From an uncultured Candidatus Saccharibacteria bacterium (GTDB taxonomy: Bacteria > Patescibacteriota > UBA1384 > 2-12-FULL-50-11), in NCBI GenBank assembly GCA_964358205.1, contig CAYHNZ010000001.1:3168-67167 (forward strand): a DNA stretch of 64,000 bases. The letters are read 5' to 3'. Below the pieces are notes generated by a model. It saw nothing but the letters and a program-made list of their open reading frames with translations. It was not told where the DNA came from and searched no databases. Shown piece by piece: positions 16,001-40,089 of this stretch. Position 1 is the first letter of the stretch. Each line of letters starts with the position of its first letter. The position numbers and the translations under genes are program-made.

Positions 16001-19000
16001 GGGACATTGCAATATACCGGCACGACCTCGTCGACTGACCGCAGCATTACGACGACCGCGGCGATCACTTTAAATCTTGATATTACAAATCCTGCCGCAG
16101 CGCTAACCATTTCGGGGACGACGACTGTAACGACTGCGCCGTTCACGAAAGTTGGACCAGGGACACTGATCTTGTCGGGCACGAACGGTCATACGGGGCT
16201 AACCACGGTCCTGGCTGGGACGCTAAAAGAGGGCGTCGCCAGTGCACTCTCAACGGGAGCGTTAACTGTTACGAACGGGACATTCGATCTCAATAACTTC
16301 TCGGATAGTGTCGGGACAACCACTCTTACTAACGGTGGGCAGATGATCGATTCCGGCGGTACGACCGCGGTTTTGACTAGTACAGCAACTTACGCATTGC
16401 AAAGCGGTAAGATCAGCGCCCGACTGGGTAGCGCCGTTGCTGCCGGTATCTCTAAAACGACAACGGATCGGGTTATTCTTTCCGGCGACAATACGTTTAC
16501 CAGCACCTCTATAGCCTTGAGTGCCGGCGCCCTGAACCTTCAAAGCAACAACGCGCTCGGCGCTGCCGGTACGACCTTAACGACCACCATTACCTCGGGC
16601 GCGGCTCTGGAAACCCAAAATAATATTACGATTCCCAGCACCAAGCCAATTACGGCTAACTTGGGCGGCGTTAACAACAGTGGCGCAATTAGGAATATCG
16701 CCGATGCCAATACGATTCAAGCCAACATCGTGCTTGGTGTGACCAACACTCGGGTGAACTCGGACAGCGGCACCCTCACCTTCCCAACCGTCTCCGGTAA
16801 CACCAACAATTTAATTGTGGGCGGCGCCGGCAATACGACAGTTACCGGTATTATTAGCACTACATCTGGCACCTTAACCAAAGACGGTGCAGGCACATTG
16901 ACGCTTCAAGGCAATAACAGTTATACGGGTCTGACAACGATCAGCGCCGGTGTCGTGAATGTTCGGCATGCCGCAGGTCTTGGCACAATTGCGGCCGGTA
17001 CCTCCGTCGCCGCTGGCGCGGCCCTGCAAATACAAGGGATCGTCACCGTTGGCGCCGAAACGTTAACGCTCAATGGCACGGGCGTTGCCAGCGACGGAGC
17101 GTTAAGAAATATCACCAACAATAATACTTATCAGGGTAATATTACTCTCAATACTACCAGTTCGATTGGCTCCGATGCCAACACGCTCACTCTAAGCGGA
17201 ACAATAACTGGCGGTGCATCCATTGGCTTAACTAAAGTTGGTGCCGGCGAGGTGTCAGCTTCCAATACGGTCACGGTTGGTGGCGACCTAACGATTTCAG
17301 CGGGAACCTTAACTGCCTCCAGCAACACCATTACGGTTAGCGGTAACTGGTCTAATAGCGGCACATTTACGGCCGGCGCGAGTACGGTGGTATTAAATGG
17401 GGGCGCCACCCAGACTTTATCCGGAACCATGACCACCACCAGCGCATTTAACAACCTAACCGTGACTAACGCCTTCGGTACCAACGCCTCGGACTGCGAA
17501 CGAACCAGCTTTGTGGCCTCGATCGATTTCGATGCTGCGGCCACGGTGACAACAAACCTAGTCTTTACGACCGCCAGTACCAGGGTGGAATTCAACAGCG
17601 GGTCAACCTATGCTTTTACCAACATCAACTGGAACGGTCAGGCATCAGGTACGAAAATTTACTTCCGCAACTCGGACGCTTCCGGTACCTGGTTATTAAA
17701 AGTCACCGGCACCCAAACTGCGGTCTCGTTTATTAATGTCTCCCGCTCCGACGCATCGGTCGTCGGCGGTAACGCCATTGTCGCCAACGACGGCACCAAC
17801 ACCGATTGCACCAATAACACCAACTGGACATTCCCGAGTAGCAATACTGCCCCAAATGCGCCAACTAGCTTGGCCCAAAAGCGCACAACCGATGTGGCGC
17901 TCGCCACCGGTGATTGGACCAATGAAACATCCGTTAAGTTTACGGCAACCGCCAGCGACACCGATAATCCCGACACACTGAAGCTCTGTATTGAAGCAAT
18001 TGCGATTGCCAGCAATTTTACTAACACCGACACCGGCTGTGGAAGCTTAACCGCCTATAGCGGTACACCAATCACTGTTACCGTCACCTTGTCTGGCCTA
18101 GTTACCAGTACCGAGTACAAATGGCAGGCGAGAATCAAGGACACGGCTGATGCCGCTTCGGCCTGGAGCGATTACGCCGCCAATGGGTCTAGTCGCGATT
18201 TTGGTGTTGATACAACCGCTTGTACGACCGCCACCGTTTACGATGGCAGTTCCGCTGGTGTAGATGCCGACTTTAACGATAGCTCGCTAACGGCGCTATC
18301 AGGCAACTGGGATGCTTTTACTTGTACTGTTTCGGGTCTGCAGAAGTATGAGTACTCAATCGGCGTGACCGCCGGCGGTACGACAATCAAGGGCTGGACC
18401 GATAACTCGACGACAGCATCGGTCACCGCCGGTAGCTTGATTTTACACACTAATGAGCTCTATTTCATTAACATCCGAGCGACCGACAACGCCAGCAACG
18501 TTTCGTCAGTGGTGTCGTCTAATGGCCAACAGGTTTTACCGTCGTTAAGTTTTACTATGGGCAGTAACACGATTAGCTTTACTAATTTAAATAGCACCAA
18601 CAACCGACTCGACACTAAAACCGTTAGTCTAACCACCAGCACTAATGCTTTCGGCGGTTATATTATTCGCCAGTACGCCGGTGGCTTACTAACCGACGGT
18701 ACCAATACCATACCGATGTTCTCGGCTGGCTCGTACGCCGCACCAGCTTCGTGGGGGACAGGGTTTTGCTCGGGTACAACTTGTGGTTACGGCTATACAT
18801 CTAACGACACAACTATCCAAGGCAGCAACTTATTTAGTAGTGGCACGCTTTATGCCCCCTTTAGCCAAACTCCTTCTGGCGATATTGTGGCCGATCACAC
18901 CGCCGCCGTTGACGGTACGAGCGGTGCAGTTAGCAACGAGTCGTTCACTATTACCCATAAAGTCGCCGTAACCGCTCTACAAGCGGCCAAAACCTATCAA

Positions 19001-19036
19001 GCAACAGTCTACTTGATTGTCACTGGCACTTTTTAA
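7043..19036 (+). CDS. Giant (3,997 aa) cell-surface repeat protein: N-terminal TM/signal anchor, >30 autotransporter-associated beta-strand (PATR-like) repeats 'TxTGxTxVNxGTLxLG', C-terminal Ig/FN3-like region
   Basis: Single uninterrupted ORF; repeated units such as 'NTYTGLTTVNAGTLTYGV', 'NSYTGLTTISAGVVNV', 'NPYTGATTINTGTLTL' throughout. Confidence 0.85.
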   Translation: MAPQIQRARRRFDGVYQATRGKILCEYNLHPVRFFSVFFSVVVLLGVIAFFKPVSASIGLHLDQRELQNKYPNFWTLAEQKKISPSSDKYFIGDEPVVPSSSPVVLAVASDSTNIEVTADSAHEDIGQNPNQFTKSVSVEQVERGTKISQKETDGQAGLYRIKAQDRVTGAVTAEETIAWGVLAFNPDYSIYPTDTSATLAMAVLDDRGKMICDASLTIEITDPNGNKKILSTENELVLVNNACLIYGPTSEPDYIANYQTGTEGDYQVTIKARVGSGVRTLHDKFSVKDNQPFYLQRVGATRTFPNAEYVYKLNFQPKVDGQYQLTETVPAEFIISDTSAKITEVGDVKKLVWQVDAKAKADQTLMFGYKGPLKSPHLYTFGPAEVSYVADARSSSITQSQQSASRKLQAESWTEPRAWQIASDAPSTVNWDGSSSANWSDGANWSTNAIPQAGDNLVFPAGAANKSNSNDLGENMLFNSITFNDSGYTLAGNTIIVGQGLNGITDAVVSGGNTISLNLRVDVTRWLTVTNSGETLTISGTIAGVGGITKEGQGKLVLSGANTYGGVTKINGGDISARSNTALGTIATGTEVVGEAALELQGTIAIGREPLTLRGYGESSGGALKNVSDSNSFDGLITIAGIAEIQSDSGTLTLNGGVTGAAIPLVLDGAGNITFAKAPVANTSGLITKNGAGTLTYNFPNTYTGLTTVNAGTLTYGVDNAILSGGITVNGGTVDIATFSDMVGTVTLGTLAGGSGIITGSTGVLSSASYVVYVGTISAIIAGDGGTLAKSTPGTVTLTRPNLFSGATTVTVGTLKIQDSLALGVIDGITTVSAGATLQVDGTGLSIPEFITISGVGLLNQGVIWNSTGSNTVTGLVTMAAASTIKADVSTTITYATNGFTGAFGLTVNGDGDTTISGPIATTSGTLSKNGPGTLTLTAFNPYTGATTINTGTLTLNSNGAITMSASIAINSNGKLIADNSSVVTDRIGDAVAVSMNGGSWDFYGSSSTNTLATAGTLTMTGGKNAITVFAGTGGYTIMRFASFSRTAGARGLFRGASLGATPAANVATILFTTAPTLLGDDGVAGTSAVSIMQGVFGDNSTSGTGTDMVTYGRGNNNGLRLLNGAGFSNEYTTNFLTTNANIKISSATAAITSQINSLILDSGASITNPGSAQTITFMSGNILNLEASGSIAGANTTLAAGAVEFSISTPQSLTISSLITTTGGLTKGGTGTLTFSTAKTYTGLTSVNDGTLIYGINDAISSGAVTVNDATLDIATFTDTVGAVVVQGGTITGTSGVLTATSYDLRAATINAILAGSGTLTVVNTNERTDAVTTLSRDNTFTGSIALTSGVLKLGGAGGGSNTPLGTTAAGITMTSGAMLDLNGYTLVTSEAISATGTGIALQGAIINSSASTVTYNGVITQTAAARIGANYGKIIIGTGGITGTFNLTLGGFGDIDVTSAITISTGTITKDGFGIYTPSSASSTYTGLTTVSAGTLKLGVSGGATNTPLGTNAGGVTVTAGATLDMNGFSLATVADTLTINGTGSGTGDFAAGALVNSSGTGVTYVGAIVLGSATTVKSNSGTITLTTGGITGAFALTLGGTASSTISGVIATAAGTIIKIDTGTWTLSSVNTYTGAATIYQGTIKNGIAAAAGGGPLGTAAGATTIFSGGVLDMNGFSLSALAEGLTINGFGIESGGAMVNNSGSGVTYLGTRALGSDTRTTNSGAGLLTLSGIQSGAFESRYGGAGNITISVAIAATASSFWKDGAGTVILSAANGHTGVTTVAAGTLQYGILNTLAAGAVVVNGGTLNIVSFSDTVGAVTLVDGMISGTTGILTATGYTFESGTISGIIAGAVAVNKYTAGTVVISGVETISSTLTIHAGTIEISGSGSAVGVTAITINLGATLTLDNSTTAVASRLLDTIVLTMNGGNFNYKGNTASTAAETIGQLLFSSGHNTVTVTPGAGGSTTLTAATNPGINRTAGATVLFRGTSLGSTPAANISTLKFTTAPIVVGGGGGTGTTTISIIKGAYGDNSLTGTGTDMVTHNVGNTNGLRLLNGPGFSGEYAANLGTASANVKLTGDTAATTTNTNSIVLNGGGVTNASVTLPIAATALAGNILIATAHNIAGANTVLGITTFELNVLANAASTVSATVGTATTGSLTLSGSGNVTFSAANPYTGTTFINNATYTYGVANAISSGAATVIGGTYNLNGNSDTIGALNATGGTIATGAGTLTLGGTVTTVANANVTSIITGNLALGANRIFNVGDGLVDNDLVVSATVTGAFTVTKSTGTGVLVLSATDSTYSGSTTISTGTFRFGSGGSGANGPLGTTAAATIISSGASLDLNGYSLATAEGLTISGTGVGANGAIMNTSSAAATYQGLIILGAAATITSNYGDITISNTGSMTGTGFALTLRGAGNGSIATQVNTSTGGSRVKNGLGTWTVSGDGGYTGVTTITLGVLKLGAAGGATNTPLGTTGTNTTIASGAMLDLNGFTLGTAEPLSIQGTGIANAGAITTSSGIATSYSGAITIATASRITNYGNGTFSLSGAIAGGAVALTTVNAPGTITQTSASVWSGTTSSLTKEGWGTTILAGQNSITGSMTVSSGTLQLGANGGAANTPTGTIAGGVIVSAGAVFDLSTFVLGGASTWEPLTLNGSGIKNGGALISAATSGNNFGVVTYGSSARVVNNASGTITFVGAPTGTFNYVFGGTGPITITGVMPAVAITITKYDSGILLLNGAHLSTGLIRINGGTVRYGVANAILVNAVTIAGGTLDINGQTDAVGAIILMSGTITNGGAAATLTGTAYTFYGGAITAVLAGTAIAMAKNTGATLTINQALTNTGTLTINAGTVQYLASNVVANTAAVIVAGGTLDIGAQTDTVAAVTLTSGAITGSTGILTGTSYAVASGTISAILAGAVTLAKTTAGTVTLSGVNTYSGVTTISGGVLSVGTIGNGGVAGNLGAAPAAASNIVSNTGTGTLQYTGTTSSTDRSITTTAAITLNLDITNPAAALTISGTTTVTTAPFTKVGPGTLILSGTNGHTGLTTVLAGTLKEGVASALSTGALTVTNGTFDLNNFSDSVGTTTLTNGGQMIDSGGTTAVLTSTATYALQSGKISARLGSAVAAGISKTTTDRVILSGDNTFTSTSIALSAGALNLQSNNALGAAGTTLTTTITSGAALETQNNITIPSTKPITANLGGVNNSGAIRNIADANTIQANIVLGVTNTRVNSDSGTLTFPTVSGNTNNLIVGGAGNTTVTGIISTTSGTLTKDGAGTLTLQGNNSYTGLTTISAGVVNVRHAAGLGTIAAGTSVAAGAALQIQGIVTVGAETLTLNGTGVASDGALRNITNNNTYQGNITLNTTSSIGSDANTLTLSGTITGGASIGLTKVGAGEVSASNTVTVGGDLTISAGTLTASSNTITVSGNWSNSGTFTAGASTVVLNGGATQTLSGTMTTTSAFNNLTVTNAFGTNASDCERTSFVASIDFDAAATVTTNLVFTTASTRVEFNSGSTYAFTNINWNGQASGTKIYFRNSDASGTWLLKVTGTQTAVSFINVSRSDASVVGGNAIVANDGTNTDCTNNTNWTFPSSNTAPNAPTSLAQKRTTDVALATGDWTNETSVKFTATASDTDNPDTLKLCIEAIAIASNFTNTDTGCGSLTAYSGTPITVTVTLSGLVTSTEYKWQARIKDTADAASAWSDYAANGSSRDFGVDTTACTTATVYDGSSAGVDADFNDSSLTALSGNWDAFTCTVSGLQKYEYSIGVTAGGTTIKGWTDNSTTASVTAGSLILHTNELYFINIRATDNASNVSSVVSSNGQQVLPSLSFTMGSNTISFTNLNSTNNRLDTKTVSLTTSTNAFGGYIIRQYAGGLLTDGTNTIPMFSAGSYAAPASWGTGFCSGTTCGYGYTSNDTTIQGSNLFSSGTLYAPFSQTPSGDIVADHTAAVDGTSGAVSNESFTITHKVAVTALQAAKTYQATVYLIVTGTF

Positions 19037-29612: not shown

Positions 29613-30023
29613 TCAGGCGATTTGCTCAATATGTAGAGCGTGAGCTTGTTTTAGCAATTTCTTGTCATAGCTGAATAATTTAGAAATACCTGCGTCCAAC
29701 ATTAGCTGTAGTATCAATGCATCATTCACGCCGGTGTTTAATTTTTGGCCCAGGTCAGCATAGCGTAAAGCGAAATCAATACTCGGTGAAGGCTCAACTA
29801 GGATTAGGCCTGGTAGTTTAGCGATTCTTTCCACGGCCCTAACGATATCAGCATCGGGAGAGAGCTTTGATAAGACAAATAATACTTCCTCGATAATATG
29901 GTGCGAGGTTACAAGTTGCTCGTCATCATCTACCAGTTTTTGAAGGAGTCCAATGGTTTGGGAATGGTTATCAGATGTTTCATCTAAGTAATAGACCAGC
30001 ACATTAGCGTCTAGCAAAACCAT
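29613..30023 (-). CDS. vapC: PIN-domain ribonuclease toxin (VapC-like)
   Basis: 'MVLLDANVLVYYLDE...' with conserved acidic residues of PIN fold; 136 aa. Confidence 0.7.
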   Translation of the reverse strand: MVLLDANVLVYYLDETSDNHSQTIGLLQKLVDDDEQLVTSHHIIEEVLFVLSKLSPDADIVRAVERIAKLPGLILVEPSPSIDFALRYADLGQKLNTGVNDALILQLMLDAGISKLFSYDKKLLKQAHALHIEQIA

Positions 30024-30198
30024 TGGACTTCTTTCATAACCCCTATTTGACAGCTTAACTGGGAGCGATTTTGAGCGAAAGGCACGATCTTGTGAGAAGG
30101 CATAGACACATCTACGCTGACGAGCAAATCGTGACTTGTAGCCAAAGTCGCCAGTTGAGTTTGATCAATGGGGTTATGAAAGAAGTCCATTATTTGAG

Positions 30199-30438
30199 CT
30201 ACTCGTATTTACTCTCGGCAAGCTCGTTGAGATATTCCGGGGTTAATGGCCGACCGGCTTTTTCCTGCAGACGAAAGCCTCCGCCAATAACCTTGCGACT
30301 TTTAGCTGTAATAGAAAGCGGTTCAAGACGAGCAATGGGTCTGCCCGCCTTGCCAATGACAATCCGCTCTCCATTAGCCGCCCTCTCAAGTAGCTTGGAA
30401 AAGTTTGTTTTCGCTTCGTGTACATTGATTACATTCAT
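30199..30438 (-). CDS. Phd/YefM-family type II antitoxin
   Basis: 'MNVINVHEAKTNFSKLLERAANGERIVIGKAGRPIARLEPL' canonical Phd/YefM N-terminus; 79 aa. Confidence 0.75.
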   Translation of the reverse strand: MNVINVHEAKTNFSKLLERAANGERIVIGKAGRPIARLEPLSITAKSRKVIGGGFRLQEKAGRPLTPEYLNELAESKYE

Positions 30439-30539
30439 AACACTAGTCTAGTCGACTAAGTGGACTCTGTCAACAGCGACATTCAGTAATTTCGTAATTC
30501 TGTAATTCCCCGCTGTGACTGATTTAGGTTATTCTGGTA

Positions 30540-33254
30540 TTGATGGTATCAACTCACCCAACCCATACTCGTCCAGTGTCGAAAGATTTTTGGTCGCAAT
30601 CGAAGACCCAAGTCTTAACCGACTTGCGCAGTAACGAGCATCACGGCTTAACCAACCAGGAGGCTCGCCGTCGGCTACTAACTCACGGCTACAATGAGCT
30701 TAATAAACCCGATCGACCGTCGCCGGTCAAACTGTTAATTCGCCAGTTTATTAGCCCGTTCGTCTATATATTACTAGCCGCCTCGGCAATCTCGTTCTAC
30801 GAACGGCAGTGGACCGAGCTAGGGGTGATTCTGGTTGTTATCGTTGCCAACGGCATTATCGGTTTTTTGGAAGAATACCGAGCCGAACAAACCATCGGCA
30901 AATTACGGAGTATCCTTGCCCCCCAAGCCCGGGTTATTCGTGAATCGGTTGAGCAAAAAATTCCCGCCCGTTATTTAGTACCGGGCGACATTATTATCGT
31001 TGAAGCTGGTGATCGTGTTCCGGCCGATGCCCGGATACTTGAAGCTAGAAGTATGCGAGTTAATCAAGCGCCGTTAACGGGCGAATCGTTACCAGCTCAC
31101 AAACGCGACACGATTATTGCGAGTGCCTCGGCTCTGCTCGATCGGGACAATATGCTTTATCTGGCCACCCTAGTTGTCTCCGGTCGAGGGGTGGCGGTGG
31201 TTTGTGCCACCGGTATGGGAACGGAATTGGGCAGTATCGCCCGGGAAGTTTCGGGTGTTAAAGAAGCGCCGAGCGATCTGCAAAAAAAGTTACAGGTCTT
31301 GGGTTCTGCCCTACTACTGGCCTCGGTTGTTCTGTCGGTAATTTCTTTTGTCATCGGCTTTGCCAACGGCGTGCCGATTCTTCAGATGTTTCGGACGACG
31401 CTCGCCCTGTTGGTTTCGGTCGTACCAGAAGGTCTGCCGATTGCCCTAACGGTAACGCTCTCGATCGGTTTAACTAGATTGTTTCATCGCCACAGTTTGA
31501 TTCGCCAGCTCTCGGCCACCGAAACGCTGGGGAGTATCACAGTGCTGTGTGTCGACAAAACCGGCACCCTGACCGAAGGGGCAATGATGGTTGAAAAAAT
31601 AGTTCTGCCCTCGGGCGAGTATTCCGTTTCGGGTCGAGGTTTCGATTTGTCGGGCTCGTTCTTTGAAGCTGAAAACAAGATCACGGCGACCAAAGTGCCC
31701 CAGCTAGATTTGATTTTGAAACTAGCTAGCCTGGCGACGATGTCATCGATTTCCAAGGACGACTTGCTGAAAAATCGGGCCAAACAATTAACCGATCCGA
31801 CCGAAACAGCCTTGGCAGTGGTGGCGGCCAAAGCCGGATACTATGCCTTTGAGGAGGAGCGAGATTACCCAGAATTGCTGGAAATCCCTTTCGATCAAGA
31901 GCTTCGCTACTCGGCTTCAATTCATCAATTCGATCATCACCACCGAATCATCGTTAAGGGCTCGCCAGAGCGATTAATCGCTCTTTGCGATTATGTGGCC
32001 GGGACCAAAAAACGGCGATTGCTAAAAACCGACCGAGACAATTTATTGCGACAAGTCGACGAACTGGCAGGGGCGGGCTACCGGCTAGTGGCGCTCTCTT
32101 ACGCTGATTACCCGGCCTCGGCCAGCATTAATGCCAGCCTGGCGAAAAATCTCACCTGGGTTGGCCTGCTAGCGCTGGCTGACCCGATTCGTCCCGAAGC
32201 CAAAAAAGCTATTAGCAACGCCCTAGATGCGGGCATCCGAACAGTGATGATTACTGGCGACCACCTCTTAACCGCCGCTCACATCGCCCGTAAACTTGGT
32301 CTGGATCTTCAGGGCGAGATCGTTCACGCCCAAGACCTGGCTGGACACGATTTGCCTAAGGTGGCAGTCATTGCGCGGGCGACCCCTAAAGACAAACTGC
32401 TGATTGTTGAACGACTTCAACGGCACGGAGATCGGGTGGCAATGACCGGCGACGGGGTAAACGACGCTCCGGCCTTGAAGAAATCTGACATCGGCGTTTC
32501 TATGGGTCGAGGCGGTAGCGACATCGCCGTTGAGGCATCGCATATGGTTCTGCTCGATGATAACATCACCGGCATCGTCTTCGCCGTCGCTGAAGGGCGG
32601 CTAATTTGGGAGAACATCAAAAAAGTGGTTTACTACCTCGTTTCCACTAGTCTGGGGGAAATTCTAACGATTATTGGCGCCGTCTTACTCGGCTGGCCTC
32701 TACCTGTCCTGGCAGTGCAAATATTGTGGATGAATTTGGTCACGGACGGGGTGACTTCGATGGCGCTCGCCGTAGAACCGGCCGAGGAGGATCTGATGAA
32801 GCGACCGCCCAGAAACCTGAAAGAGCCGATTCTGTCGAGCTCAACTTTTGGTCGAATGATGCTGGTATCGGTGGTGATGGCGTTGGGGGCGTTGTTTATT
32901 TTTGAGCGCTTCGCCAGTGACCTGGTTTACGCTCGGTCAGCGACACTGACGACGCTGGTCTTTTTTCAGCTCTTTAATTTATTTAACAGTCGTTCGGCGA
33001 CGGCGTCCGTTTTCAAGATTAACTGGTTTGATAATCGATGGCTTCTATTAATGTTTGGTGTCGCGACAACCTTGCAATTGGGCGTCCTTTACTGGCCGAG
33101 CGTCAGCGGTGTTTTGGGCTTGACGGCCCTGGATTTACCGACGCTCGCTCTCTGTCTGGTGGTCTCTCTCTCGATTGTCTTAGTGGACGAGTTGCGTAAA
33201 TTAGGGCGTATAATGATGCTGTCTTGGGCTAAAACCCAAGCGGTGTTTAACTGA
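30540..33254 (+). CDS. Cation-transporting P-type ATPase (type IIA Ca2+-ATPase-like)
   Basis: 'CVDKTGTLTEG' phosphorylation site, 'MTGDGVNDAPALKKSDIGVSMG' hinge, 10 TM layout, 904 aa. Confidence 0.85.
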   Translation: MMVSTHPTHTRPVSKDFWSQSKTQVLTDLRSNEHHGLTNQEARRRLLTHGYNELNKPDRPSPVKLLIRQFISPFVYILLAASAISFYERQWTELGVILVVIVANGIIGFLEEYRAEQTIGKLRSILAPQARVIRESVEQKIPARYLVPGDIIIVEAGDRVPADARILEARSMRVNQAPLTGESLPAHKRDTIIASASALLDRDNMLYLATLVVSGRGVAVVCATGMGTELGSIAREVSGVKEAPSDLQKKLQVLGSALLLASVVLSVISFVIGFANGVPILQMFRTTLALLVSVVPEGLPIALTVTLSIGLTRLFHRHSLIRQLSATETLGSITVLCVDKTGTLTEGAMMVEKIVLPSGEYSVSGRGFDLSGSFFEAENKITATKVPQLDLILKLASLATMSSISKDDLLKNRAKQLTDPTETALAVVAAKAGYYAFEEERDYPELLEIPFDQELRYSASIHQFDHHHRIIVKGSPERLIALCDYVAGTKKRRLLKTDRDNLLRQVDELAGAGYRLVALSYADYPASASINASLAKNLTWVGLLALADPIRPEAKKAISNALDAGIRTVMITGDHLLTAAHIARKLGLDLQGEIVHAQDLAGHDLPKVAVIARATPKDKLLIVERLQRHGDRVAMTGDGVNDAPALKKSDIGVSMGRGGSDIAVEASHMVLLDDNITGIVFAVAEGRLIWENIKKVVYYLVSTSLGEILTIIGAVLLGWPLPVLAVQILWMNLVTDGVTSMALAVEPAEEDLMKRPPRNLKEPILSSSTFGRMMLVSVVMALGALFIFERFASDLVYARSATLTTLVFFQLFNLFNSRSATASVFKINWFDNRWLLLMFGVATTLQLGVLYWPSVSGVLGLTALDLPTLALCLVVSLSIVLVDELRKLGRIMMLSWAKTQAVFN

Positions 33255-33628
33255 TGAAACAGAAAAAGATTTTATTGGTCGAGGACAACGAGGAGCTCCG
33301 CCGACTCTACAAAGAGGCTTTTAGTCATCACGACTTCGCCGTTTTTGAATCTGGCGACGGCCAGTCAGCCATCGATTCCGCCTTACTTCATGCCCCGGAT
33401 ATTATCTTGCTGGATTTGATGTTACCTCGCCAGGGGGGACTGGGGGCGCTCAAAATTTTTCGCACCCTACCGGAGTGCAAGCACATCCCGATTATTATTC
33501 TGACGGCTCTGCCTAACCCCGAGTACAAAGAACAGGCCGAAGGTCGGGTTCAGGGCTACTACCTAAAAACCGAGATCACCCCGAAGGAACTGATTGAAAA
33601 AATCGAAACGTTGCTAGCACCCAGCTAA
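33254..33628 (+). CDS. Stand-alone response-regulator receiver domain (CheY-like); start overlaps ATPase stop (TGATG)
   Basis: 'KILLVEDNEELRRLY...DIILLDLMLP...IPIIILTA' receiver signature; 124 aa. Confidence 0.8.
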   Translation: MKQKKILLVEDNEELRRLYKEAFSHHDFAVFESGDGQSAIDSALLHAPDIILLDLMLPRQGGLGALKIFRTLPECKHIPIIILTALPNPEYKEQAEGRVQGYYLKTEITPKELIEKIETLLAPS

Positions 33629-33657
33629 ACTGACGAATCCTTGCTAGGGAAAGGGTA

Positions 33658-33720
33658 TTGACAAGCCGTGGTAGGTGTATATAATACACTTATATAGTGT
33701 AGAAAATACACTATTGTAGC
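33658..33720 (+). promoter_or_regulatory. Sigma-70-like promoter TTGACA-16nt-TATAAT (33658-33685) followed by operator-like palindromes (TACACT...AGTGTA) upstream of the SPFH operon
   Basis: Read directly: 'TTGACAagccgtggtaggtgtaTATAATacacttatatagtgtagaaaatacactattgtag'. Confidence 0.5.
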
Positions 33721-33766
33721 TTCACATTCATGTGTGCAAAGCGGAAAGAGCCTTCAGGAGACTAGA

Positions 33767-34642
33767 ATGTTTGGTATCTCACTGTTTCACTCGGCCGGTG
33801 CTACTGGCCACGTTTTCACTCTGAGTCGAGGAACGTTCCAGGACCGAGGTATCGGCTGGAGCGGACTGATCGGCCCGATGACCGCCGTGGCCGTCGTCCC
33901 CACAATCGCACAGGTGATCAACTTTTCTGTCGAAGCGTACACGCAAGACAGACAGCAGATCACCGTTAGCGGCAGTATTCAGGCCAGACTGAACGGCCAG
34001 GATGCTAAGAACAGTTTCGACTTCACCGTCGACAAACACAGCGGCGGCTACCGTAGCAGATGGGAGGCGCTACTCCAGCAGAGCATCGTCGAGCAGATTC
34101 TTGGTCCGATCCGGACCCAGGCGCTTAAACTCGATATCTCGACGGCCGTCACCTCGCAACCGCAATTTGAGGAAGCGATCCGTCAGGCGATCGCTGACAA
34201 GACCAACCCGCTCGTAGCCCGTGGCGTCACAATCGAAAGCTGCTCGGTCTCGACGGTCGAACCATCTGACGACGAAGTTAGCGAAGCGATCGGTTCCAAG
34301 GAGCGCGAAGATCTGCTCTCGGCGGCGGATACCGCCCGGCACGAACGTCGCTCCAAAGCGGCTAATCACGAGCGAGATATCAGAACTTTTGAGGCCGAAA
34401 CCAACCTCAAACTCGAAATGGATCGTTCCAAGCTAGTCGCCGAGCAGGGCAAGAACATGGTCGCGCTTGCCAAGTCGGAAGCCGAAGCCACCCAAGCTCG
34501 TCTCGAGCCGTTGACCAATATCGACCCCGGCAAATTGATGGCCGCGGCGCTGATGGTCGCTGCCGAGAAAGGAAAACTTGGCTCGCTTAACCTGACAACT
34601 GAGCTTCTCGCCGCAGTCACAGCGACTGAAAAAGGCGGCTAA
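33767..34642 (+). CDS. SPFH/band-7 (flotillin/stomatin-like) domain protein
   Basis: SPFH-like core followed by coiled-coil 'EAE..Q' region; start at 33767 has AGGAG 6 nt upstream. Confidence 0.55.
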   Translation: MFGISLFHSAGATGHVFTLSRGTFQDRGIGWSGLIGPMTAVAVVPTIAQVINFSVEAYTQDRQQITVSGSIQARLNGQDAKNSFDFTVDKHSGGYRSRWEALLQQSIVEQILGPIRTQALKLDISTAVTSQPQFEEAIRQAIADKTNPLVARGVTIESCSVSTVEPSDDEVSEAIGSKEREDLLSAADTARHERRSKAANHERDIRTFEAETNLKLEMDRSKLVAEQGKNMVALAKSEAEATQARLEPLTNIDPGKLMAAALMVAAEKGKLGSLNLTTELLAAVTATEKGG

Positions 34643-34644
34643 CG

Positions 34645-35556
34645 ATGGATCGCGTCGTCGTGGTTACTAAGCCAACTCGGCTCGAGGAGCTGATCCGGGA
34701 ACATCTCACTGAAGGGATGGCCCAGTTCTTCCTCGAATCGAAGGACGACTCCATCGCTCCGTATCGGGATGAACATACGACCTATCAAGACGCCTTGACC
34801 GCGGTTCGCCGCCAGATCCCCAACGATCTGGTAGTCACCACTGTCTCGCGGAGCGACTTACCGACGTTTCTCTTTCGAGACGACGATCTGGTGATCGTCT
34901 GCGGGCCAGACGGCCTGTTTGTCAACCTGGCTCAATACGTCACGAACCAGTTGGTGCTCGGAGTCAATCCCGATCCCGACAGCATCGCTGGCAACCTGAT
35001 GCCATTTGAGCCAACCCAGGTTGGCGACGTCATTACTCGCGTCAAGAACGACAAGTACCTCGTCGAGGATCTGCCGTTTGTCAAAGCGACGACGAGCGAC
35101 GACAAAGTCGTCTGGGGCATCAACGACATCTTTATCGGCCGCCGGGATCACATTTCGGCCCGATACAAGATTGCCTTTGGTAGTCGGGAGGAACGACACT
35201 CGTCGGACGGCGTGATCGTCTCAACTGGCGTCGGGACCAACGGCTGGTTACGTTCAATCGTGGCGATGGTCGATGGTCTAATCCCAGAACGGGGGCGCCA
35301 TCTTTTGACGCAGCTACCGGGTCCGACCGACTTAGAGCTAGTCTTCGTCGTTCGCGATCCGTTCCCCTCGCCGGTGACCGGCGCGACAATCGTGACCGGA
35401 CGAGTTGTCGTCGGGTCCTTGCTGAAACTAACCTCTGAGATGCCCAGGGGCGGCGTCATCTTCTCAGATGGCATTATCGAAAAGGGTGTCGACTGGCCGG
35501 CCGGTAGCACCGTGACCGTTACCGTTGGTGAACGTGTTGTTCACCGAGTTGTTTGA
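34645..35556 (+). CDS. ATP-NAD kinase / DAG-kinase-fold protein (divergent: GPDG instead of GGDG)
   Basis: 'VIVCGPDGLF' and 'DGVIVSTGVGTNGWLRSI' resemble NAD kinase GGDGT and DGxxVSTPTGSTAYS motifs. Confidence 0.45.
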   Translation: MDRVVVVTKPTRLEELIREHLTEGMAQFFLESKDDSIAPYRDEHTTYQDALTAVRRQIPNDLVVTTVSRSDLPTFLFRDDDLVIVCGPDGLFVNLAQYVTNQLVLGVNPDPDSIAGNLMPFEPTQVGDVITRVKNDKYLVEDLPFVKATTSDDKVVWGINDIFIGRRDHISARYKIAFGSREERHSSDGVIVSTGVGTNGWLRSIVAMVDGLIPERGRHLLTQLPGPTDLELVFVVRDPFPSPVTGATIVTGRVVVGSLLKLTSEMPRGGVIFSDGIIEKGVDWPAGSTVTVTVGERVVHRVV

Positions 35557-35619
35557 TAGAAAACCTTAGGGGGGCGAATAGCCCCCCTGTTCTTATAAAT
35601 GATATATTTCAATTAAACG

Positions 35620-36309
35620 ATGACAAAACAATCAAAAGAATCTTTCGTTGAGACTGTAGCTCGACTCAGGGTGGCAATCGCCGCCGTCGATGTCGTGCTT
35701 TTAAGTGTGCTCAAAAATAAAGTCCAAGTTTTTCTGATGCCGGTTCACCGGCCGCCGCACTACCGACATCAACATGGCGTACCAGGTGGGGTTATTCGTT
35801 CTGACGAATCGGCTGAGGCCTCGGCCAGGCGCCATCTCAGTGAAAAAGTAGGGGTCAAAGATGTTCATATTGAACAATTCCACACCTTCAGCGATCCCGA
35901 TCGTGATAAACGGAGCCGGGCGATTTCCGTCGCCTTTCTGGCCCTGGTCCCTGCTGTAGCCACTGATATAAATTCAACAGAAAGCGGCCAGTGGTTTCCG
36001 GTTTCCGCCTTGCCGGAGTTAGCCTTTGACCATAAAGATATGATTAAAGTCGCGGTCGAACGCTTGAAACTGAAATTGATAAACACCACTATCATTTCGA
36101 GCTTACTACCCGGGCAATTTACCTTGCCGCAGCTCCAAGAGCTCTACGAAATTATTCTCGCTCGACCGCTCGATAAGCGGAACTTCCGTCGCAAGATTAT
36201 TGCGCTTGATGTCGTTGAGACAGTCGGTCGACAGAAGGACAGTATTTATCGGCCAGCCAAACTCTTCTCCTTTAAGAAAAAGGGTACTCTTAGCAGTGAC
36301 GTTTTATAG
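35620..36309 (+). CDS. nrtR: NrtR-like regulator: N-terminal Nudix hydrolase-like domain + C-terminal winged-helix DNA-binding domain
   Basis: Nudix-box-like 'GGVIRSDESAEASARRHLSEKVGV'; C-terminal 'FTLPQLQELYEIILARPLDKRNFRRKI' typical of NrtR wHTH. Confidence 0.55.
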   Translation: MTKQSKESFVETVARLRVAIAAVDVVLLSVLKNKVQVFLMPVHRPPHYRHQHGVPGGVIRSDESAEASARRHLSEKVGVKDVHIEQFHTFSDPDRDKRSRAISVAFLALVPAVATDINSTESGQWFPVSALPELAFDHKDMIKVAVERLKLKLINTTIISSLLPGQFTLPQLQELYEIILARPLDKRNFRRKIIALDVVETVGRQKDSIYRPAKLFSFKKKGTLSSDVL

Positions 36310-36496
36310 CTCCTGACGTCGCCACAATCAGATCCAGGGTTACTACTTAAAAGCGGGATTAAGCCCGAGTAGCTGATTGGGGAGCACTAATCATCACCAG
36401 CTGCGTCAAGTAGTCGACTTAGGCCGGTTTTTTCGCTAAAATATCAGAGCTAAAAGGTTTTTTGGTCCATCGTCTACTTGGAGCAACAGAGCGACA

Positions 36497-36596
36497 AGCG
36501 AGCCCGAGCTTACGAGGGCGACAATGGCCTAGGACGCCTGGTTCTCACTTCGACCCGCCGGCTGGCGGGGAGAAGCGAGCTGATACTTACAAACTT
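36497..36596 (+). other. tRNA-Glu-like fragments upstream of the complete tRNA-Glu: D-arm piece 'TCGTCTA' + 47-nt insert + 'ATGGCCTAGGACGCCTGGTTCTCA' (D loop to anticodon CUC), then a second insert carrying the CCGCCGGCTGGCGG hairpin
   Basis: Aligns with inner tRNA-Glu 'TCGTCTAGTGGCCTAGGACACCTGGTTCTCAT'. Confidence 0.5.
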
Positions 36597-36673
36597 GGCG
36601 TGTTCGTCTAGTGGCCTAGGACACCTGGTTCTCATCCAGGAGATCACGGGTTCGACTCCCGTACACGCCGCCA
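36597..36673 (+). tRNA. tRNA-Glu (anticodon CUC), complete cloverleaf with encoded CCA; flanked by a perfect 9-bp inverted repeat GCTGATACT (36579-36587) / AGTATCAGC (36678-36686)
   Basis: GGCGTGT-TC-GTCT-AGTGGCCTA-GGAC-A-CCTGG-TTCTCAT-CCAGG-AGATC-ACGGG-TTCGACT-CCCGT-ACACGCC-G-CCA; matches bacterial tRNA-Glu D-loop signature. Confidence 0.85.
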
Positions 36674-36686
36674 AATCAGTATCAGC

Positions 36687-36775
36687 GACATCCAGGAGAT
36701 CACGGGCCTTCGCCCGCCGAAGCGGGGCTACTGCCCGCGAAGGCGGGGGTTCGACTCCTTCGTCACTGACTCGGT
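36687..36775 (+). other. tRNA-Glu-like 3' fragment ('ATCCAGGAGATCACGGG' anticodon-stem 3' strand + variable loop + T-stem 5' strand) continuing the upstream outer copy, followed by GC-rich hairpins and 'GGGGGTTCGACTCC' T-loop-like sequence
   Basis: Read directly; resumes the inner-tRNA sequence from anticodon-loop position 38 onward, then diverges. Confidence 0.45.
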
Positions 36776-36832
36776 TGATTTTTGTCATCAAGAGATATAC
36801 ACTAGCGCAGTATTCGTACCTAAGGAGTTGTT

Positions 36833-37636
36833 ATGGAAGAACCGATTGAAGAACAATTGTCATCGCTTCTTCGGCGACCGCTTCTAACGGTCGAGGAAGA
36901 ACGCTATCTAGCTCGTCAGATGCGCCTCGGTGGTTCGGAGGGAGCCGAGGCCCGAATTCGATTAATTGAGGGTAACATTCGTTTGGTAAATTCAATTGCC
37001 CATTCCTTCAACCGTCAGGAATACGTGAGCGACCTCATCGCCGAAGGAATGATTGGATTAGTGAGGGCTGTTGATGGATTTGATCCCGATAAAGGGTTCA
37101 GGCTCTCCACTTACGCCACTCCGTCCATTCGAAAAGCTATTTCGAAGTCGCTGGCTAATTTTCACAACAATCGCAATGTGGCCCGATTGCCAGATTATGC
37201 GGTTTGGGCACTTCGTCAGCTTCGCCAACTTATCGAGGAATCGCCGCAATTGCTGGGTGATATTGAGACTTTGGCGACAAGAATGGGAACGACACGAGAG
37301 ACGACGGTACTGTTGCTTTTTGCCCACCACGGTGGCCTGACGGCTCTATCGCTCGATGTGCCCGTCACGGGAGATTCCAGCACATCCTTCCTGGAAGTAG
37401 TTCCAGAGCTGAAAGTTGAGGATGCGAGCGTAGAATTGGTCGGTATTTTACTCGAACATTTAACAGAAAGAGAAGCTAAGATTTTCCGGCTTCATTATCT
37501 GGAGGGAGAGTTACTAGTTGAAATCGCGGCCAAAATGAATATCTCGATTACTGGGTTGGGAAGGATTATGTCTAGGGCCAAAGACAAGCTCCGCAGTAAA
37601 TATCCGACACTGACTGAATTAATCCTCGATTCCTGA
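36833..37636 (+). CDS. Sigma-70 family RNA polymerase sigma factor (regions 2-4)
   Basis: 'LIEGNIRLVNSIAHSF...DLIAEGMIGLVRAVDGFDPDKGFRLSTYATPSIRKAI' region 2; C-terminal HTH region 4; 267 aa. Confidence 0.8.
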   Translation: MEEPIEEQLSSLLRRPLLTVEEERYLARQMRLGGSEGAEARIRLIEGNIRLVNSIAHSFNRQEYVSDLIAEGMIGLVRAVDGFDPDKGFRLSTYATPSIRKAISKSLANFHNNRNVARLPDYAVWALRQLRQLIEESPQLLGDIETLATRMGTTRETTVLLLFAHHGGLTALSLDVPVTGDSSTSFLEVVPELKVEDASVELVGILLEHLTEREAKIFRLHYLEGELLVEIAAKMNISITGLGRIMSRAKDKLRSKYPTLTELILDS

Positions 37637-37725
37637 CCGTCACTAATGTGGCGGTCGTTTTTTAAAGGTAGGTATACTAAAGCTATGCTCATGTCAGTAT
37701 TGGTTTTAACACCTAATATTTCGAA

Positions 37726-38613
37726 ATGTCGTTAATTATTTTCTGGCTGATGCCAGTTGTGCTGTTATTGGTTTTAATTCTCTTGGTCCTGCCAATTATT
37801 AAGCCCCACCGAAACGGCCGTCTTTATGTCATCGAGCCGCTCGGCTGGTTGGTTACAACCTGGCAAGTAGCGCGGTTTGAGCCAAACACACAGTCGCTCG
37901 CCCGACTTTTTAAAGTGCTCGCTAGTAGCAATCTTTCGAAAGGCACACTGCTGGAGCAAATCATCGTCTCGGCGGCTGGAGCGCTTCGCATAAAATCCCA
38001 AACTACTTCTGCGACATTGATCGAACATCAGTCGATCGGACCGTTGGCCGAACGGTTTGTCCTGGAAATTAGCACCAAAACCCAATCGGTCATCGTTGGG
38101 CCGCTGGAGCAAATCGGAAGCTTGGTTGAGGATGAAAATATGGCCAAATACCGTATTTTGTCCCAAAAGTCCGCCGACCACGGCTACTTGGCGCTAACAA
38201 TTGCCACTGCTTTTGTTCACGGCGACAAACCCAAAAGAACCAAACATCGAATTGAGGGGCTAGTAGTGATTGAACCTAAGGTCGCCGTCGACCGAGCGGC
38301 AACATTGCAGAAACTTGGCCAAGACTCGGTTCGGTTTCTGTCTGTCGCGCCAGTTGGCTTTACCAGACATTTATATCAACAAATCTTTCCTGACCAAGCC
38401 CCCTTTGGTCTCGATGCCAAAGAGCTAGAAACAGTTCTGCCACCGAAATTTGCCGAAGCCGATTTGGAGAAGGCCGTCGTCGTCGGCGGAGCCGATATCG
38501 TCGCCCGCCATCAAGCCCTGCGAACTTGGCAACGTCGCTTTGACTGCGTCGTTGTCAGTATTAATCCTGAAGACCGAGATTTACCTATTACCCCCAAGAC
38601 CAACATTATCTAA
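37726..38613 (+). CDS. Hypothetical membrane-anchored protein (N-terminal TM)
   Basis: 'LIIFWLMPVVLLLVLILLVLPII' then soluble domain, no recognised motifs. Confidence 0.35.
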   Translation: MSLIIFWLMPVVLLLVLILLVLPIIKPHRNGRLYVIEPLGWLVTTWQVARFEPNTQSLARLFKVLASSNLSKGTLLEQIIVSAAGALRIKSQTTSATLIEHQSIGPLAERFVLEISTKTQSVIVGPLEQIGSLVEDENMAKYRILSQKSADHGYLALTIATAFVHGDKPKRTKHRIEGLVVIEPKVAVDRAATLQKLGQDSVRFLSVAPVGFTRHLYQQIFPDQAPFGLDAKELETVLPPKFAEADLEKAVVVGGADIVARHQALRTWQRRFDCVVVSINPEDRDLPITPKTNII

Positions 38614-38766
38614 ACACAGAATACCAACTTTCCCAGAATATTTCGTTAAACCCTGCGTATGTCATATAGGACATATTCGGTATTAGGGTCTTTGGGCTAT
38701 ACCTGTCTTCAAGCCCTCCCCATAGTTTGCTTTGGCTAAAACTCTCTGGTCGGGTAGAATACGGTA

Positions 38767-39993
38767 ATGAATCGAGACAATTTACTACCGTTATCGGGGT
38801 TTCGCGATCAGCTTGAGCCGAGTAAATCGGCCATATTAGACGAACTGAAGAAAATCTTTCAAAGCTACGGTTATCAGGAGTTGGAAACGCCGGTAATTGA
38901 GCGTCAGGAGATACTGCTCGGTAAGATGGGAGACGAAGCCCAGAAATTACTTTATCTATTCGAAGACAATGGGAAGCGGAAAGTCGGCTTGCGTTACGAT
39001 CTAACGGTGCCTTTGAGCCGATATGTGGCCGGCAATTACCAGAGTATGGCCTTGCCGTTCAAGCGCTTTGAGATCGGGCCGGTTTTTCGAGCCGAAAAGC
39101 CCCAGGCCGGTCGCTTCCGCCAATTTACCCAGGCCGATATCGATATTGTTGGCTCCGACGGAGGGGAGAGGGAAATTCTTGAGATAGTCGCCTCGGTTGC
39201 CCAAAACTTCGGCTTAAAAATCACCTGTGTTATTAACGATCGACGAATAGTTGAAGCGGTGTTTGAAGACCTGAAAGTCAAAACGGATATCCGTCAGTCG
39301 CTCCTGCGCCTGCTCGACAAAAAAGACAAGATTGCCGCCGAGCGGCTGGCTCGTGAGTTAGATGACTTAGGCATGACGACTGTTCAGAAGAAAGCCGTCA
39401 GCGGCCTGTTTCTGGGTGACGACGAGCCATTTGACGAGCTCGAAGGCCTACTTGGCAAGTCCGAAGCCCTAGCCGAACTTAAAAACCTGGTTAAATACGG
39501 CAAATCGATCGGCTTGAAGATGAAGTTTGATTTATCGATGGTTCGGGGGCTCGATTACTACACCGGCACGATTTTTGAATGCGTTGAAAAAAGTTACGGC
39601 GGCGGCACGCTGATGGGTGGCGGTCGCTATGACGGTTTGGTTGAGAGTTTGATCGGTCAGAAGCTACCAGCCGTCGGTATCTCTTTTGGGGTTGACCGGA
39701 TCGGCGAAGTGATGCAACTCAAAACTTCCGAGCAGTTGTTTGTCGTCTGCTTGCCGGAGAACGAAGTTGAAACTCGTCGCTGGGCAACCGAATTGCGCGA
39801 GCAGGGGAAGAGAGTTGAGGTTTATCTGGACTCGGCCGTCGAACTCGGCAAGCAGATTAAATATGCCGACAAGCGGGGCTATAAAACAATTATCATTCCA
39901 CTGGAAGAAGCCTGGAAAAAGGGCTGTGTTGAGGTGAAAGATCTTGAATCCGGCAAGCAGGAAGCAGTTGAGCGAAATCAAATAAGTAAATAG
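38767..39993 (+). CDS. hisS: Histidyl-tRNA synthetase (class II) with C-terminal anticodon-binding domain
   Basis: Motif 1/2 region 'KRFEIGPVFRAEKPQAGRFRQFTQADIDIVG'; 'GGGRYD' motif 3; 408 aa. Confidence 0.85.
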   Translation: MNRDNLLPLSGFRDQLEPSKSAILDELKKIFQSYGYQELETPVIERQEILLGKMGDEAQKLLYLFEDNGKRKVGLRYDLTVPLSRYVAGNYQSMALPFKRFEIGPVFRAEKPQAGRFRQFTQADIDIVGSDGGEREILEIVASVAQNFGLKITCVINDRRIVEAVFEDLKVKTDIRQSLLRLLDKKDKIAAERLARELDDLGMTTVQKKAVSGLFLGDDEPFDELEGLLGKSEALAELKNLVKYGKSIGLKMKFDLSMVRGLDYYTGTIFECVEKSYGGGTLMGGGRYDGLVESLIGQKLPAVGISFGVDRIGEVMQLKTSEQLFVVCLPENEVETRRWATELREQGKRVEVYLDSAVELGKQIKYADKRGYKTIIIPLEEAWKKGCVEVKDLESGKQEAVERNQISK

Positions 39994-40089
39994 CGTTCCA
40001 GCGAAAAACCGCGAGCCATGACCCATCAAAAGCAGGTCAGTGAGCGGTTTTTCACTTCTCCCCGAAGGGTAGCGTGCGGGGTAGGGAGT

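Follow-up and report, generated by a model that had tools for sequence, protein, structure and literature searches.

Regulators of the NrtR family, which join a Nudix domain to a winged helix, are known from regulons of nicotinamide adenine dinucleotide (NAD) biosynthesis and salvage, such as prs-nadV in Shewanella, nadM-nadV in Synechocystis and nadABC in Mycobacterium. Most NrtR groups use sites of 21-bp palindromic symmetry with a GT-N7-AC core (Rodionov et al., 2008; NAR 36:2047, PMC2330246). Table 1 of that study also lists, under the pathway "?", two genes of unknown function, nrtX and nrtY, in the arrangements nrtR<#>nrtX-nrtY in Proteus mirabilis and #nrtR2; #nrtX-nrtY in Streptomyces (2), with further cases in Kineococcus, Frankia and Hahella, where #nrtX-nrtY stands beside salvage genes. 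In the literature searched, we found no later characterisation of nrtX or nrtY, and no publication linking SPFH proteins with NAD kinase, NrtR or Nudix. Here we describe a locus at positions 33658-36309 of a 64,000-nt stretch of DNA (the window) from an uncultured Candidatus Saccharibacteria bacterium (contig CAYHNZ010000001.1), in which the open reading frames of an SPFH/Band-7 protein, an NAD-kinase-fold protein and an NrtR-family regulator follow one another in this order on the + strand. The locus, also found on the related Patescibacteria contig JBBUAP010000001.1, is a new Patescibacterial member of this predicted and uncharacterised NrtR regulon, since the loci of Proteus and Streptomyces show the arrangements of the published table.

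Because these arrangements match the gene orders of Table 1, we infer that nrtX is the SPFH gene and nrtY the gene of the kinase, which resembles mitochondrial NADK2. The window shares with the nrtX-nrtY regulon the nrtR gene and the NrtR sites placed before a two-gene operon. It differs in that its nrtR follows the pair on the same strand, past a hairpin, rather than diverging from it, in that its half-site reads AGTGTA and not AGTGTC, and in its host, a Patescibacterium. Compared with the canonical regulons, the locus has the same architecture of Nudix domain and winged helix, and the same 21-bp GT-N7-AC palindrome, and it keeps both a degenerate Nudix box and residues that contact ADP-ribose, but its targets are an SPFH protein and an NADK-like kinase, not enzymes of NAD biosynthesis or salvage.

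Taken as a whole, we consider moderately probable a scheme in which this locus encodes an NrtR-repressed, ADP-ribose-induced accessory NAD(H) kinase that works with an SPFH oligomer. NrtR dimers would bind two tandem 21-bp palindromes lying over the -10 hexamer and the transcription start of a strong promoter of sigma-70 type, and this occupancy would keep the SPFH and kinase genes off. Consumption of NAD would let ADP-ribose, or a close NAD-derived nucleotide, accumulate and bind the catalytically dead Nudix domain, NrtR would leave the DNA, and the two translationally coupled genes could then be expressed. The NADK2-type kinase would phosphorylate NAD(H) to NADP(H), as an inducible accessory beside any housekeeping NadK, while the SPFH protein, devoid of a transmembrane helix, would form a ring- or cage-like oligomer scaffolding, localising or gating the kinase.

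Promoter and tandem operator

Repression by promoter occlusion is suggested by the positions of the operators. The predicted sigma-70-type promoter (33658-33685, + strand) comprises TTGACA at 33658-33663, a 16-nt spacer and TATAAT at 33680-33685. An earlier reading of the same DNA, made from the letters alone and called here the sequence-only reading, had picked out this promoter, and rightly so: it matches the consensus at 12/12 positions and is the sole such match within the 10 kb scanned (30000-40000). Its activity is presumed from these hexamers, and it should be weighed against the scheme that the call is based on sequence in Patescibacteria, whose promoters are unstudied. Relatives also display a -35-like TTGAC and a -10-like TATAAT or TATATT, the -10 being embedded in operator site 1.

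Two NrtR-type operators, neither assigned to a strand, are predicted on the consensus TAAGTGTA-N5-TACACTTA, a 21-bp palindrome with a GT-N7-AC core. Site 1, TAGGTGTATATAATACACTTA (33672-33692), is a 21-bp inverted repeat scoring 30.1 bits, and site 2, ATAGTGTAGAAAATACACTAT (33694-33714), has perfect 8-nt arms separated by a 5-nt gap and scores 26.1 bits. Their centres lie 22 bp apart and the pair forms a 22-nt direct repeat; the -10 hexamer falls on the dyad centre of site 1, and site 2 spans about +2 to +22 of the predicted transcript. TACACT/AGTGTA palindromes had been placed after the promoter by the sequence-only reading. They are indeed present, but their phasing had to be revised, since TACACT-N5-AGTGTA is the junction of sites 1 and 2, the true half-sites being AGTGTA-N5-TACACT; likewise, site 2 does lie 3' of the -10 hexamer, but site 1 overlaps it.

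The operator was conserved among relatives. Our comparison covered 37 related loci (cited by L numbers) from at least seven phyla, among them Patescibacteria, Verrucomicrobiota, Planctomycetota, Armatimonadota, Chloroflexota, Pseudomonadota and Actinomycetota, and the same 21-bp palindrome recurs 5' of SPFH in relatives: 18 of the 26 genome loci, and the window too, have sites above 20 bits no more than ~150 nt 5' of SPFH. Others stand upstream of nrtR (L004, L025) or beside nrtR and a second Nudix gene (L022), and neither the genome loci nor the 64-kb window yielded a further copy above 20 bits in the matrix scan. A tandem arrangement with a spacing of 21-24 bp is found in L001, L002, L003, L006, L009, L019, L024, L028, L032 and L033. 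Related sites also occur in Verrucomicrobia, Rhizobium, Providencia, Moraxella and Proteus, the last four of which carry two to four of them (TTAGTGTC-N5-GACACTAA or variants) in the region from which nrtR and SPFH diverge. Comparison with known NrtR operators, as had been proposed earlier, thus turned out in favour of an NrtR site, in view of the 21-bp GT-N7-AC form and of its conservation 5' of SPFH or nrtR.

It might be argued that promoter and palindromes are chance AT-rich sequence devoid of a regulatory role, in line with the fact that the 17-mer core with at most two mismatches is not rare (2 found, 1.19 expected). However, the two sites are adjacent, the 21-mer pattern with at most three mismatches is expected 0.09 times per window, and dozens of loci of several phyla carry the motif at this same position and nowhere else. 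When scored with the matrix built from relatives, sites 1 and 2 reach 30 and 26 bits, and no other position in the 64-kb window reaches 12 bits. This conservation effectively refutes a chance origin, to which we attach a negligible probability.

Other elements were observed around the operators. A leader element, (C/T)TC(T/A)TTGAAA(G/A) with the core palindrome CTTT-G-AAAG, lies 3' of the operators in ~12 of the 26 loci, 32-68 nt upstream of the SPFH start (L002, L003, L004, L005, L006, L007, L008, L010, L013, L015, L017 and L024). The window and L001 lack it and carry CACATTCATGTG instead (33723-33734 in the window). In L030, a perfect-consensus operator, TTAGTGTATACTTGACACTAA (11017-11037), stands 3' of the kinase gene and 5' of a gene string running from a PP2C phosphatase and a protein kinase to a nicotinate phosphoribosyltransferase (NAPRTase), which suggests that the genome of L030 holds further members of the NrtR regulon.

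The NrtR regulator and its probable effector

The regulator gene (35620-36309, + strand) encodes an NrtR-family protein of 229 aa, with a degenerate Nudix domain (PF00293, residues 26-142, 2.7e-11) and an NrtR winged helix (PF21906, residues 161-218, 1.4e-21), in agreement with the Nudix plus winged-helix assignment of the sequence-only reading. It aligns end to end with BtAraR of Bacteroides thetaiotaomicron (5BS6, 2e-30) and with Shewanella SoNrtR (3GZ5, 1.5e-26). This full-length alignment and the PF21906 match settle, in favour of NrtR, the concern that the C-terminal domain might be a winged helix of another type. The Nudix box reads G-X5-E-X7-R-H-L-S-E-K, and its R-H-L-S-E-K part resembles the R-Q-U-X-E-K box of the enzymatically inactive MsNrtR of Mycobacterium. 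The recognition helix, DKRNFRR, is nearly the same as the DKRNFRK of BtAraR (PDB 5BS6/5DD4), the highest-scoring solved homologue. In the AraR-DNA crystal complex this helix reads GTGT, a pairing that matches the AGTGTA half-sites of the window. A covariation between helix and half-site (DKRNFRK with GTGTA, QKKSFRR with GTGTC) was also considered and was discarded, as L030, L012 and L016, which have helices of the DKRNFRK type, use GTGTC as well.

Judging from the residues that line the pocket, ADP-ribose or a closely related compound is the most likely effector. Lys76 and Arg98, which contact the ADP moiety of ADP-ribose in SoNrtR, are kept in the window protein (K76, R98) and in most module-linked NrtRs, L030 having Arg for Lys; the window protein also retains the contacts to the ribose (R95 and, in FDH, the His). 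By contrast, Lys76 and Arg98 are replaced in the arabinose-binding AraR, whose nucleotide pocket is filled in (Leu67, Gly89). Three observations speak against this assignment. The phosphate-binding Arg41 of SoNrtR aligns with Val42, a conserved Arg44 standing two residues further on, so that the match of the pocket is not clean. The protein scores 133.5 bits against the cut-off of 400 of the NCBIfam equivalog NF050029, and is thus a member of the family rather than a curated equivalog. Finally, its best PDB match is AraR, a sugar sensor. The last point could mean that NrtR does bind the palindromes but responds to an effector that is not derived from NAD, for instance a sugar as in AraR, and that the module is untied from NAD turnover. 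Arabinose-sensing BtAraR is indeed the closest structural homologue by sequence, and effectors are known from the literature to vary within the NrtR family. We nevertheless find a sugar effector highly improbable, given that most module-linked NrtRs keep the very two residues that AraR has lost, that the regulated enzyme has an NAD kinase fold, and that some of the loci lie in NAD-salvage clusters.

The sequence-only reading had taken the three genes for one operon and the palindromes for a possible autoregulatory NrtR site. The first two genes, 2 nt apart, bear this out; the third is set apart by a terminator-like, GC-rich hairpin with a weak T-tract (35567-35589, + strand), within a 63-nt spacer between the kinase gene and nrtR that folds at -20.9 kcal/mol. 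We found no convincing nrtR promoter or operator in this spacer, which, like the hairpin, counts against the scheme. The spacer of L001 is similar, with a strong hairpin, a poor T-tract and no operator, while L002, L006, L008 and L018 show clear intrinsic terminators at the same position and L002, L006 and L003 a weak operator-like sequence further on, before nrtR. On account of these hairpins and terminators, and of the operator-like sequence in some loci, nrtR is probably a partly separate transcription unit. The operator is of NrtR type, as had been proposed, but autoregulation of NrtR in the window would need read-through of the hairpin.

The SPFH protein and the NADK2-like kinase

The kinase gene (34645-35556, + strand) starts 2 nt past the SPFH stop codon and encodes an nrtY-type protein of 303 aa. 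Its AlphaFold2 (AF2) model (predicted local distance difference test, pLDDT, 94) has the two-domain fold of NAD kinases, and its 50 best Foldseek matches in the PDB consist entirely of NAD kinases, the first being human mitochondrial NADK2 (7r4j, TM-score 0.76, E = 5e-20). Sequence searches point in the same direction: NADK2 is the sole match of the window kinase in the PDB (E = 5.5e-5), and a profile of the kinase family finds NADK2 at 4e-14 and canonical bacterial NADKs at 1e-5 or worse. With E. coli NadK as the query, NADK2 ranks last among the NADKs (E = 0.004). The ATP-NAD kinase fold with a GPDG motif, as read earlier, is thereby borne out by Foldseek and by weak NCBIfam matches to NAD kinases. 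The earlier suggestion to oppose Pfam models PF01513 (NAD_kinase) and PF00781 (DAGK_cat) gave no match to either at E <= 0.1, and no other Pfam family matched the kinase. A lipid or diacylglycerol kinase, which would have undermined the sequence-only reading, was rejected, since Pfam gave no DAGK_cat match at E <= 0.1 and the top-50 fold matches contained no lipid kinase.

The family kept the residues by which NADK2 handles NAD. The motifs of the window kinase are G87-P-D89-G, N108-P-D-P, N160-D161, D188-G and W201. K9, equivalent to NADK2 K76 near the NAD diphosphate, D89, equivalent to the catalytic D161, and W201, equivalent to W319, which stacks on the nicotinamide, are all invariant in the family. 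In the NAD-binding N-E/D motif (N160-D161), N160 is nearly invariant and D161 invariant. N108-P-D-P, a family hallmark, corresponds to N(T/S)DP of NADK2, the motif 1 of which, PX-GXN(T/S)DP, reads LVLGVNPDP in the window, with Pro replacing Thr/Ser. In region II (Asp189, Thr200 and Tyr202 of Ppnk), the window has D188, N199 and W201; most relatives have Ser at the position of D188, as in NADK2, and Thr at that of N199, and W201 is as in NADK2. Within G87-P88-D89-G90, the family shows no variation at the Asp or at either outer glycine, and the second Gly is replaced. Since the invariant residues of the family match those of NADK2 and other NADKs, GPDG is read here as a family hallmark, not as a lesion. 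The likeness to human NADK2 (C5orf33) and plant NADK3 extends to N-x-D-P, the nicotinamide-stacking Trp, the N-terminal Lys and the catalytic Asp. The window kinase is, however, ~18% identical to NADK2 and has GPDG in place of GGDG, and kinases of the nrtY type are always paired with an SPFH gene, under predicted NrtR control.

NAD(H) is most likely the substrate of the kinase, in view of these conserved NAD-contact residues and of an NAD-salvage context in two relatives. In L032, indeed, the gene order is ADP-ribosylglycohydrolase, NadM-type nicotinamide mononucleotide adenylyltransferase (NMNAT)/Nudix, NadE, PncB, SPFH and kinase, and L030 has PncB near the module, besides its extra operator site. 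Several results nevertheless run counter to an NAD kinase and leave room for another substrate: GGDG is altered to G-x-DG throughout the family (x = P, Q, R, S or A), Pfam gives no PF01513 match at E <= 0.1, and the best NCBIfam NAD kinase score is 28.8 bits against curated cut-offs of 211-470. The same circuit could then act on ADP-ribose (yielding 2'-phospho-ADP-ribose), nicotinic acid adenine dinucleotide (NaAD) or another adenine dinucleotide, in which case the module would process or signal an NAD breakdown product and make no NADP. The loss of the second Gly across the family and the rejection by curated NAD kinase models would fit such a role, as would the fact that the kinase was never seen without SPFH in the 25 readable genome loci, its coexistence with a housekeeping NadK in Proteus, and the in vitro binding of phospho-ADP-ribose by NrtR, known from the literature. 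Yet the equivalents of W319 (nicotinamide), K76 (diphosphate) and the catalytic Asp are invariant, the N-E/D motif is conserved, and a strict GGDG is missing even from 7 of 65 homologues of NADK2. A substrate other than NAD(H) is accordingly, in our view, unlikely, although it deserves more credit than any other alternative considered here. Phosphorylation of NAD(H) is retained as the preferred activity, in an accessory rather than a housekeeping enzyme at least in Proteus, where a canonical nadK is present besides the nrtY-type kinase.

The SPFH gene (33767-34642, + strand) encodes an nrtX-type protein of 291 aa without an N-terminal transmembrane helix. It matches Pfam Band_7 (E = 2.3e-13), as the sequence-only reading had it. 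Its start is probably the ATG at 33767 and not the GTG at 33734, because a Shine-Dalgarno-like AGGAG (33756-33760, + strand; read from the sequence) lies 6 nt 5' of this ATG and because the alignment of orthologues gives the longer GTG form no support, all 25 aligned proteins beginning near M-x-x-x-LF-x-x-AGATGHVF. The AF2 model (pLDDT 84) shows an SPFH domain from residue ~5, a helix of ~80 residues (169-250) and C-terminal helices. Its Foldseek matches are HflK/C, prohibitin, erlin, flotillin, stomatin and the shoulder/cap-helix region of the major vault protein. With these proteins and QmcA it has in common the SPFH domain, the very long helix and the C-terminal helices. The model thus gives the protein the predicted architecture of ring- and cage-forming family members, minus the anchor. 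A transmembrane reading was rejected on the basis of the AF2 model and of hydropathy, the maximum of which (1.71, in beta strands; family range 0.96-1.74) compares with 2.59 in a P-type ATPase control and does not exceed that of the soluble kinase family. Peripheral membrane binding is possible. Unlike the known cage- and ring-forming SPFH proteins, the window protein has no N-terminal transmembrane segment, its oligomer is a prediction, and it is paired with a soluble kinase; neither an NfeD nor an FtsH gene was found within the window to go with it.

Strict gene linkage and translational coupling suggest that the SPFH protein may work physically with the kinase, a contact that is put forward here by inference. 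The one fusion found, a metagenomic protein, P0127 (574 aa), in which an SPFH domain is joined to the kinase (junction ...PEALEELLRRHHS...), was examined as Rosetta-stone evidence and down-weighted. Its junction drops the SPFH tail and the first ~20 residues of the kinase, including the first strand and K9, which speaks against a working fusion; it looks like a deletion between similar short motifs, and the fusion may be a deletion artefact.

Distribution of the module and its meaning

The SPFH-kinase pair is widespread and strictly linked. The kinase family counts >6,000 clusters at 90% identity, typically ~60% identical across phyla, and 1,633 clusters with E <= 1e-3 at 50% clustering. An SPFH gene lies directly upstream of the kinase gene in 25 of the 25 genome loci with readable upstream sequence, and the same order is seen in the other loci checked, including Rhizobium, Providencia, Moraxella and Streptomyces, usually with a spacing of a few bases or an overlap. 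Of the 37 loci, 16 have an adjacent nrtR, which may be divergent, stand upstream or follow the pair on the same strand. In Providencia (L034), Moraxella (L035) and Proteus (L036) it is divergent from SPFH-kinase with the sites in between; Proteus mirabilis has three such sites and a kinase 38% identical to that of the window. In Streptomyces (L038), the pair overlaps and has no adjacent nrtR.

In the window, the neighbours of the locus are housekeeping genes (DnaE, GltX, HisS, IleS, a P-type ATPase and a sigma factor). The GC content is ~58% in the SPFH and kinase genes, as against ~50% in the flanks and in nrtR. A tRNA-Glu(CTC) gene (36597-36673) lies ~290 bp 3' of nrtR, and this proximity, together with the difference in GC content, hints at an acquisition beside a tRNA gene. 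The tRNA-Glu was the sole match at threshold in an Rfam scan of 33500-36900, the leader and the spacer being without a known RNA element. About 800 bp of the window (35086-35885), taking in the kinase gene's 3' half, the spacer with the hairpin and the first part of nrtR, are 100% identical in DNA to the related metagenome-assembled genome contig L001, inside a 5.9-kb alignment that elsewhere shows 72-90% identity across its first 4.6 kb; such a block suggests that lineages recombined recently, or else that the assembly is shared or chimeric. Further away, positions 7043-19036 form one open reading frame for a giant protein of 3,997 aa.

In Moraxella (L035, 7927-9841) and Proteus (L036, 5635-6828), tetR(H)-tet(H) or tet(J) directly adjoins the kinase gene. 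Pieces of this gene that encode a C-terminal part (~residues 160-287) are present on small plasmids of Pasteurella, Actinobacillus, Psychrobacter and Wohlfahrtiimonas (H51-H55), and are apparently a remnant mobilised with tetracycline-resistance genes.

Another alternative is a role in conflict or defence. ADP-ribose released by NADase-type immunity or by toxins could induce the SPFH cage and the kinase, which would either protect the pyridine-nucleotide pool, with NAD moved into NADP beyond the reach of NADases, or act as an effector. Nudix-HTH (helix-turn-helix) regulators have indeed been proposed in the literature as ADP-ribose sensors in conflict systems; the patchy cross-phylum distribution at ~60% identity and the 58% GC of the pair against a background of ~50% would also fit, and on the Planctomycetota contig L027 (1248-3338, 9171-12915) the pair is flanked by a SEFIR/TIR-AAA protein and by BrxA/BrxB/BrxC (BREX), in a defence-island context. 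However, that context was seen in 1 of the 37 loci, a count made without a systematic enrichment test, and the neighbourhood in the window is of the housekeeping kind. Moreover, PADLOC and PHROGs gave no match for the SPFH protein or the kinase, with generic Nudix matches alone for NrtR, and the viral contigs of IMG/VR contained no relative of the kinase. We therefore regard a defence module as improbable, and keep to an accessory NAD(H) kinase induced by ADP-ribose.

A bolder proposal would join several of these threads: nrtY would represent the prokaryotic stock of eukaryotic NADK2/NADK3, the SPFH protein would form a soluble cage similar to vaults or prohibitins, and the whole would be an ADP-ribose-induced shelter in which the pyridine-nucleotide pool is protected or rebuilt. 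We hold this to be a long shot. If true, the SPFH protein would enclose or gate the kinase, and the pool would be rebuilt during NAD destruction, for example by NADase immunity or toxins, which would amount to a new type of enzyme-SPFH compartment and to a new arm of NAD-centred conflict biology.

For the window itself, the sequence-only reading is upheld in what it saw and in how it read it, apart from the corrections given above, and the outcome is a well-supported annotation of a kind of system already on record. For the family, the two genes of the nrtX-nrtY unit described in 2008 now receive identities, as a cage-type SPFH protein without a transmembrane helix and a kinase of the mitochondrial NADK2 type. 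Their pair is strictly linked and widespread, its homologues numbering thousands in organisms as different as Patescibacteria, Rhizobium and Proteus, and it comes with a tandem operator that can be recognised. The mitochondrial NAD kinase may thus have relatives among bacteria. A question that can be addressed in cultured organisms is why bacteria endowed with NadK would maintain another NAD-kinase-like enzyme, inducible by ADP-ribose according to the scheme and linked to an SPFH protein.

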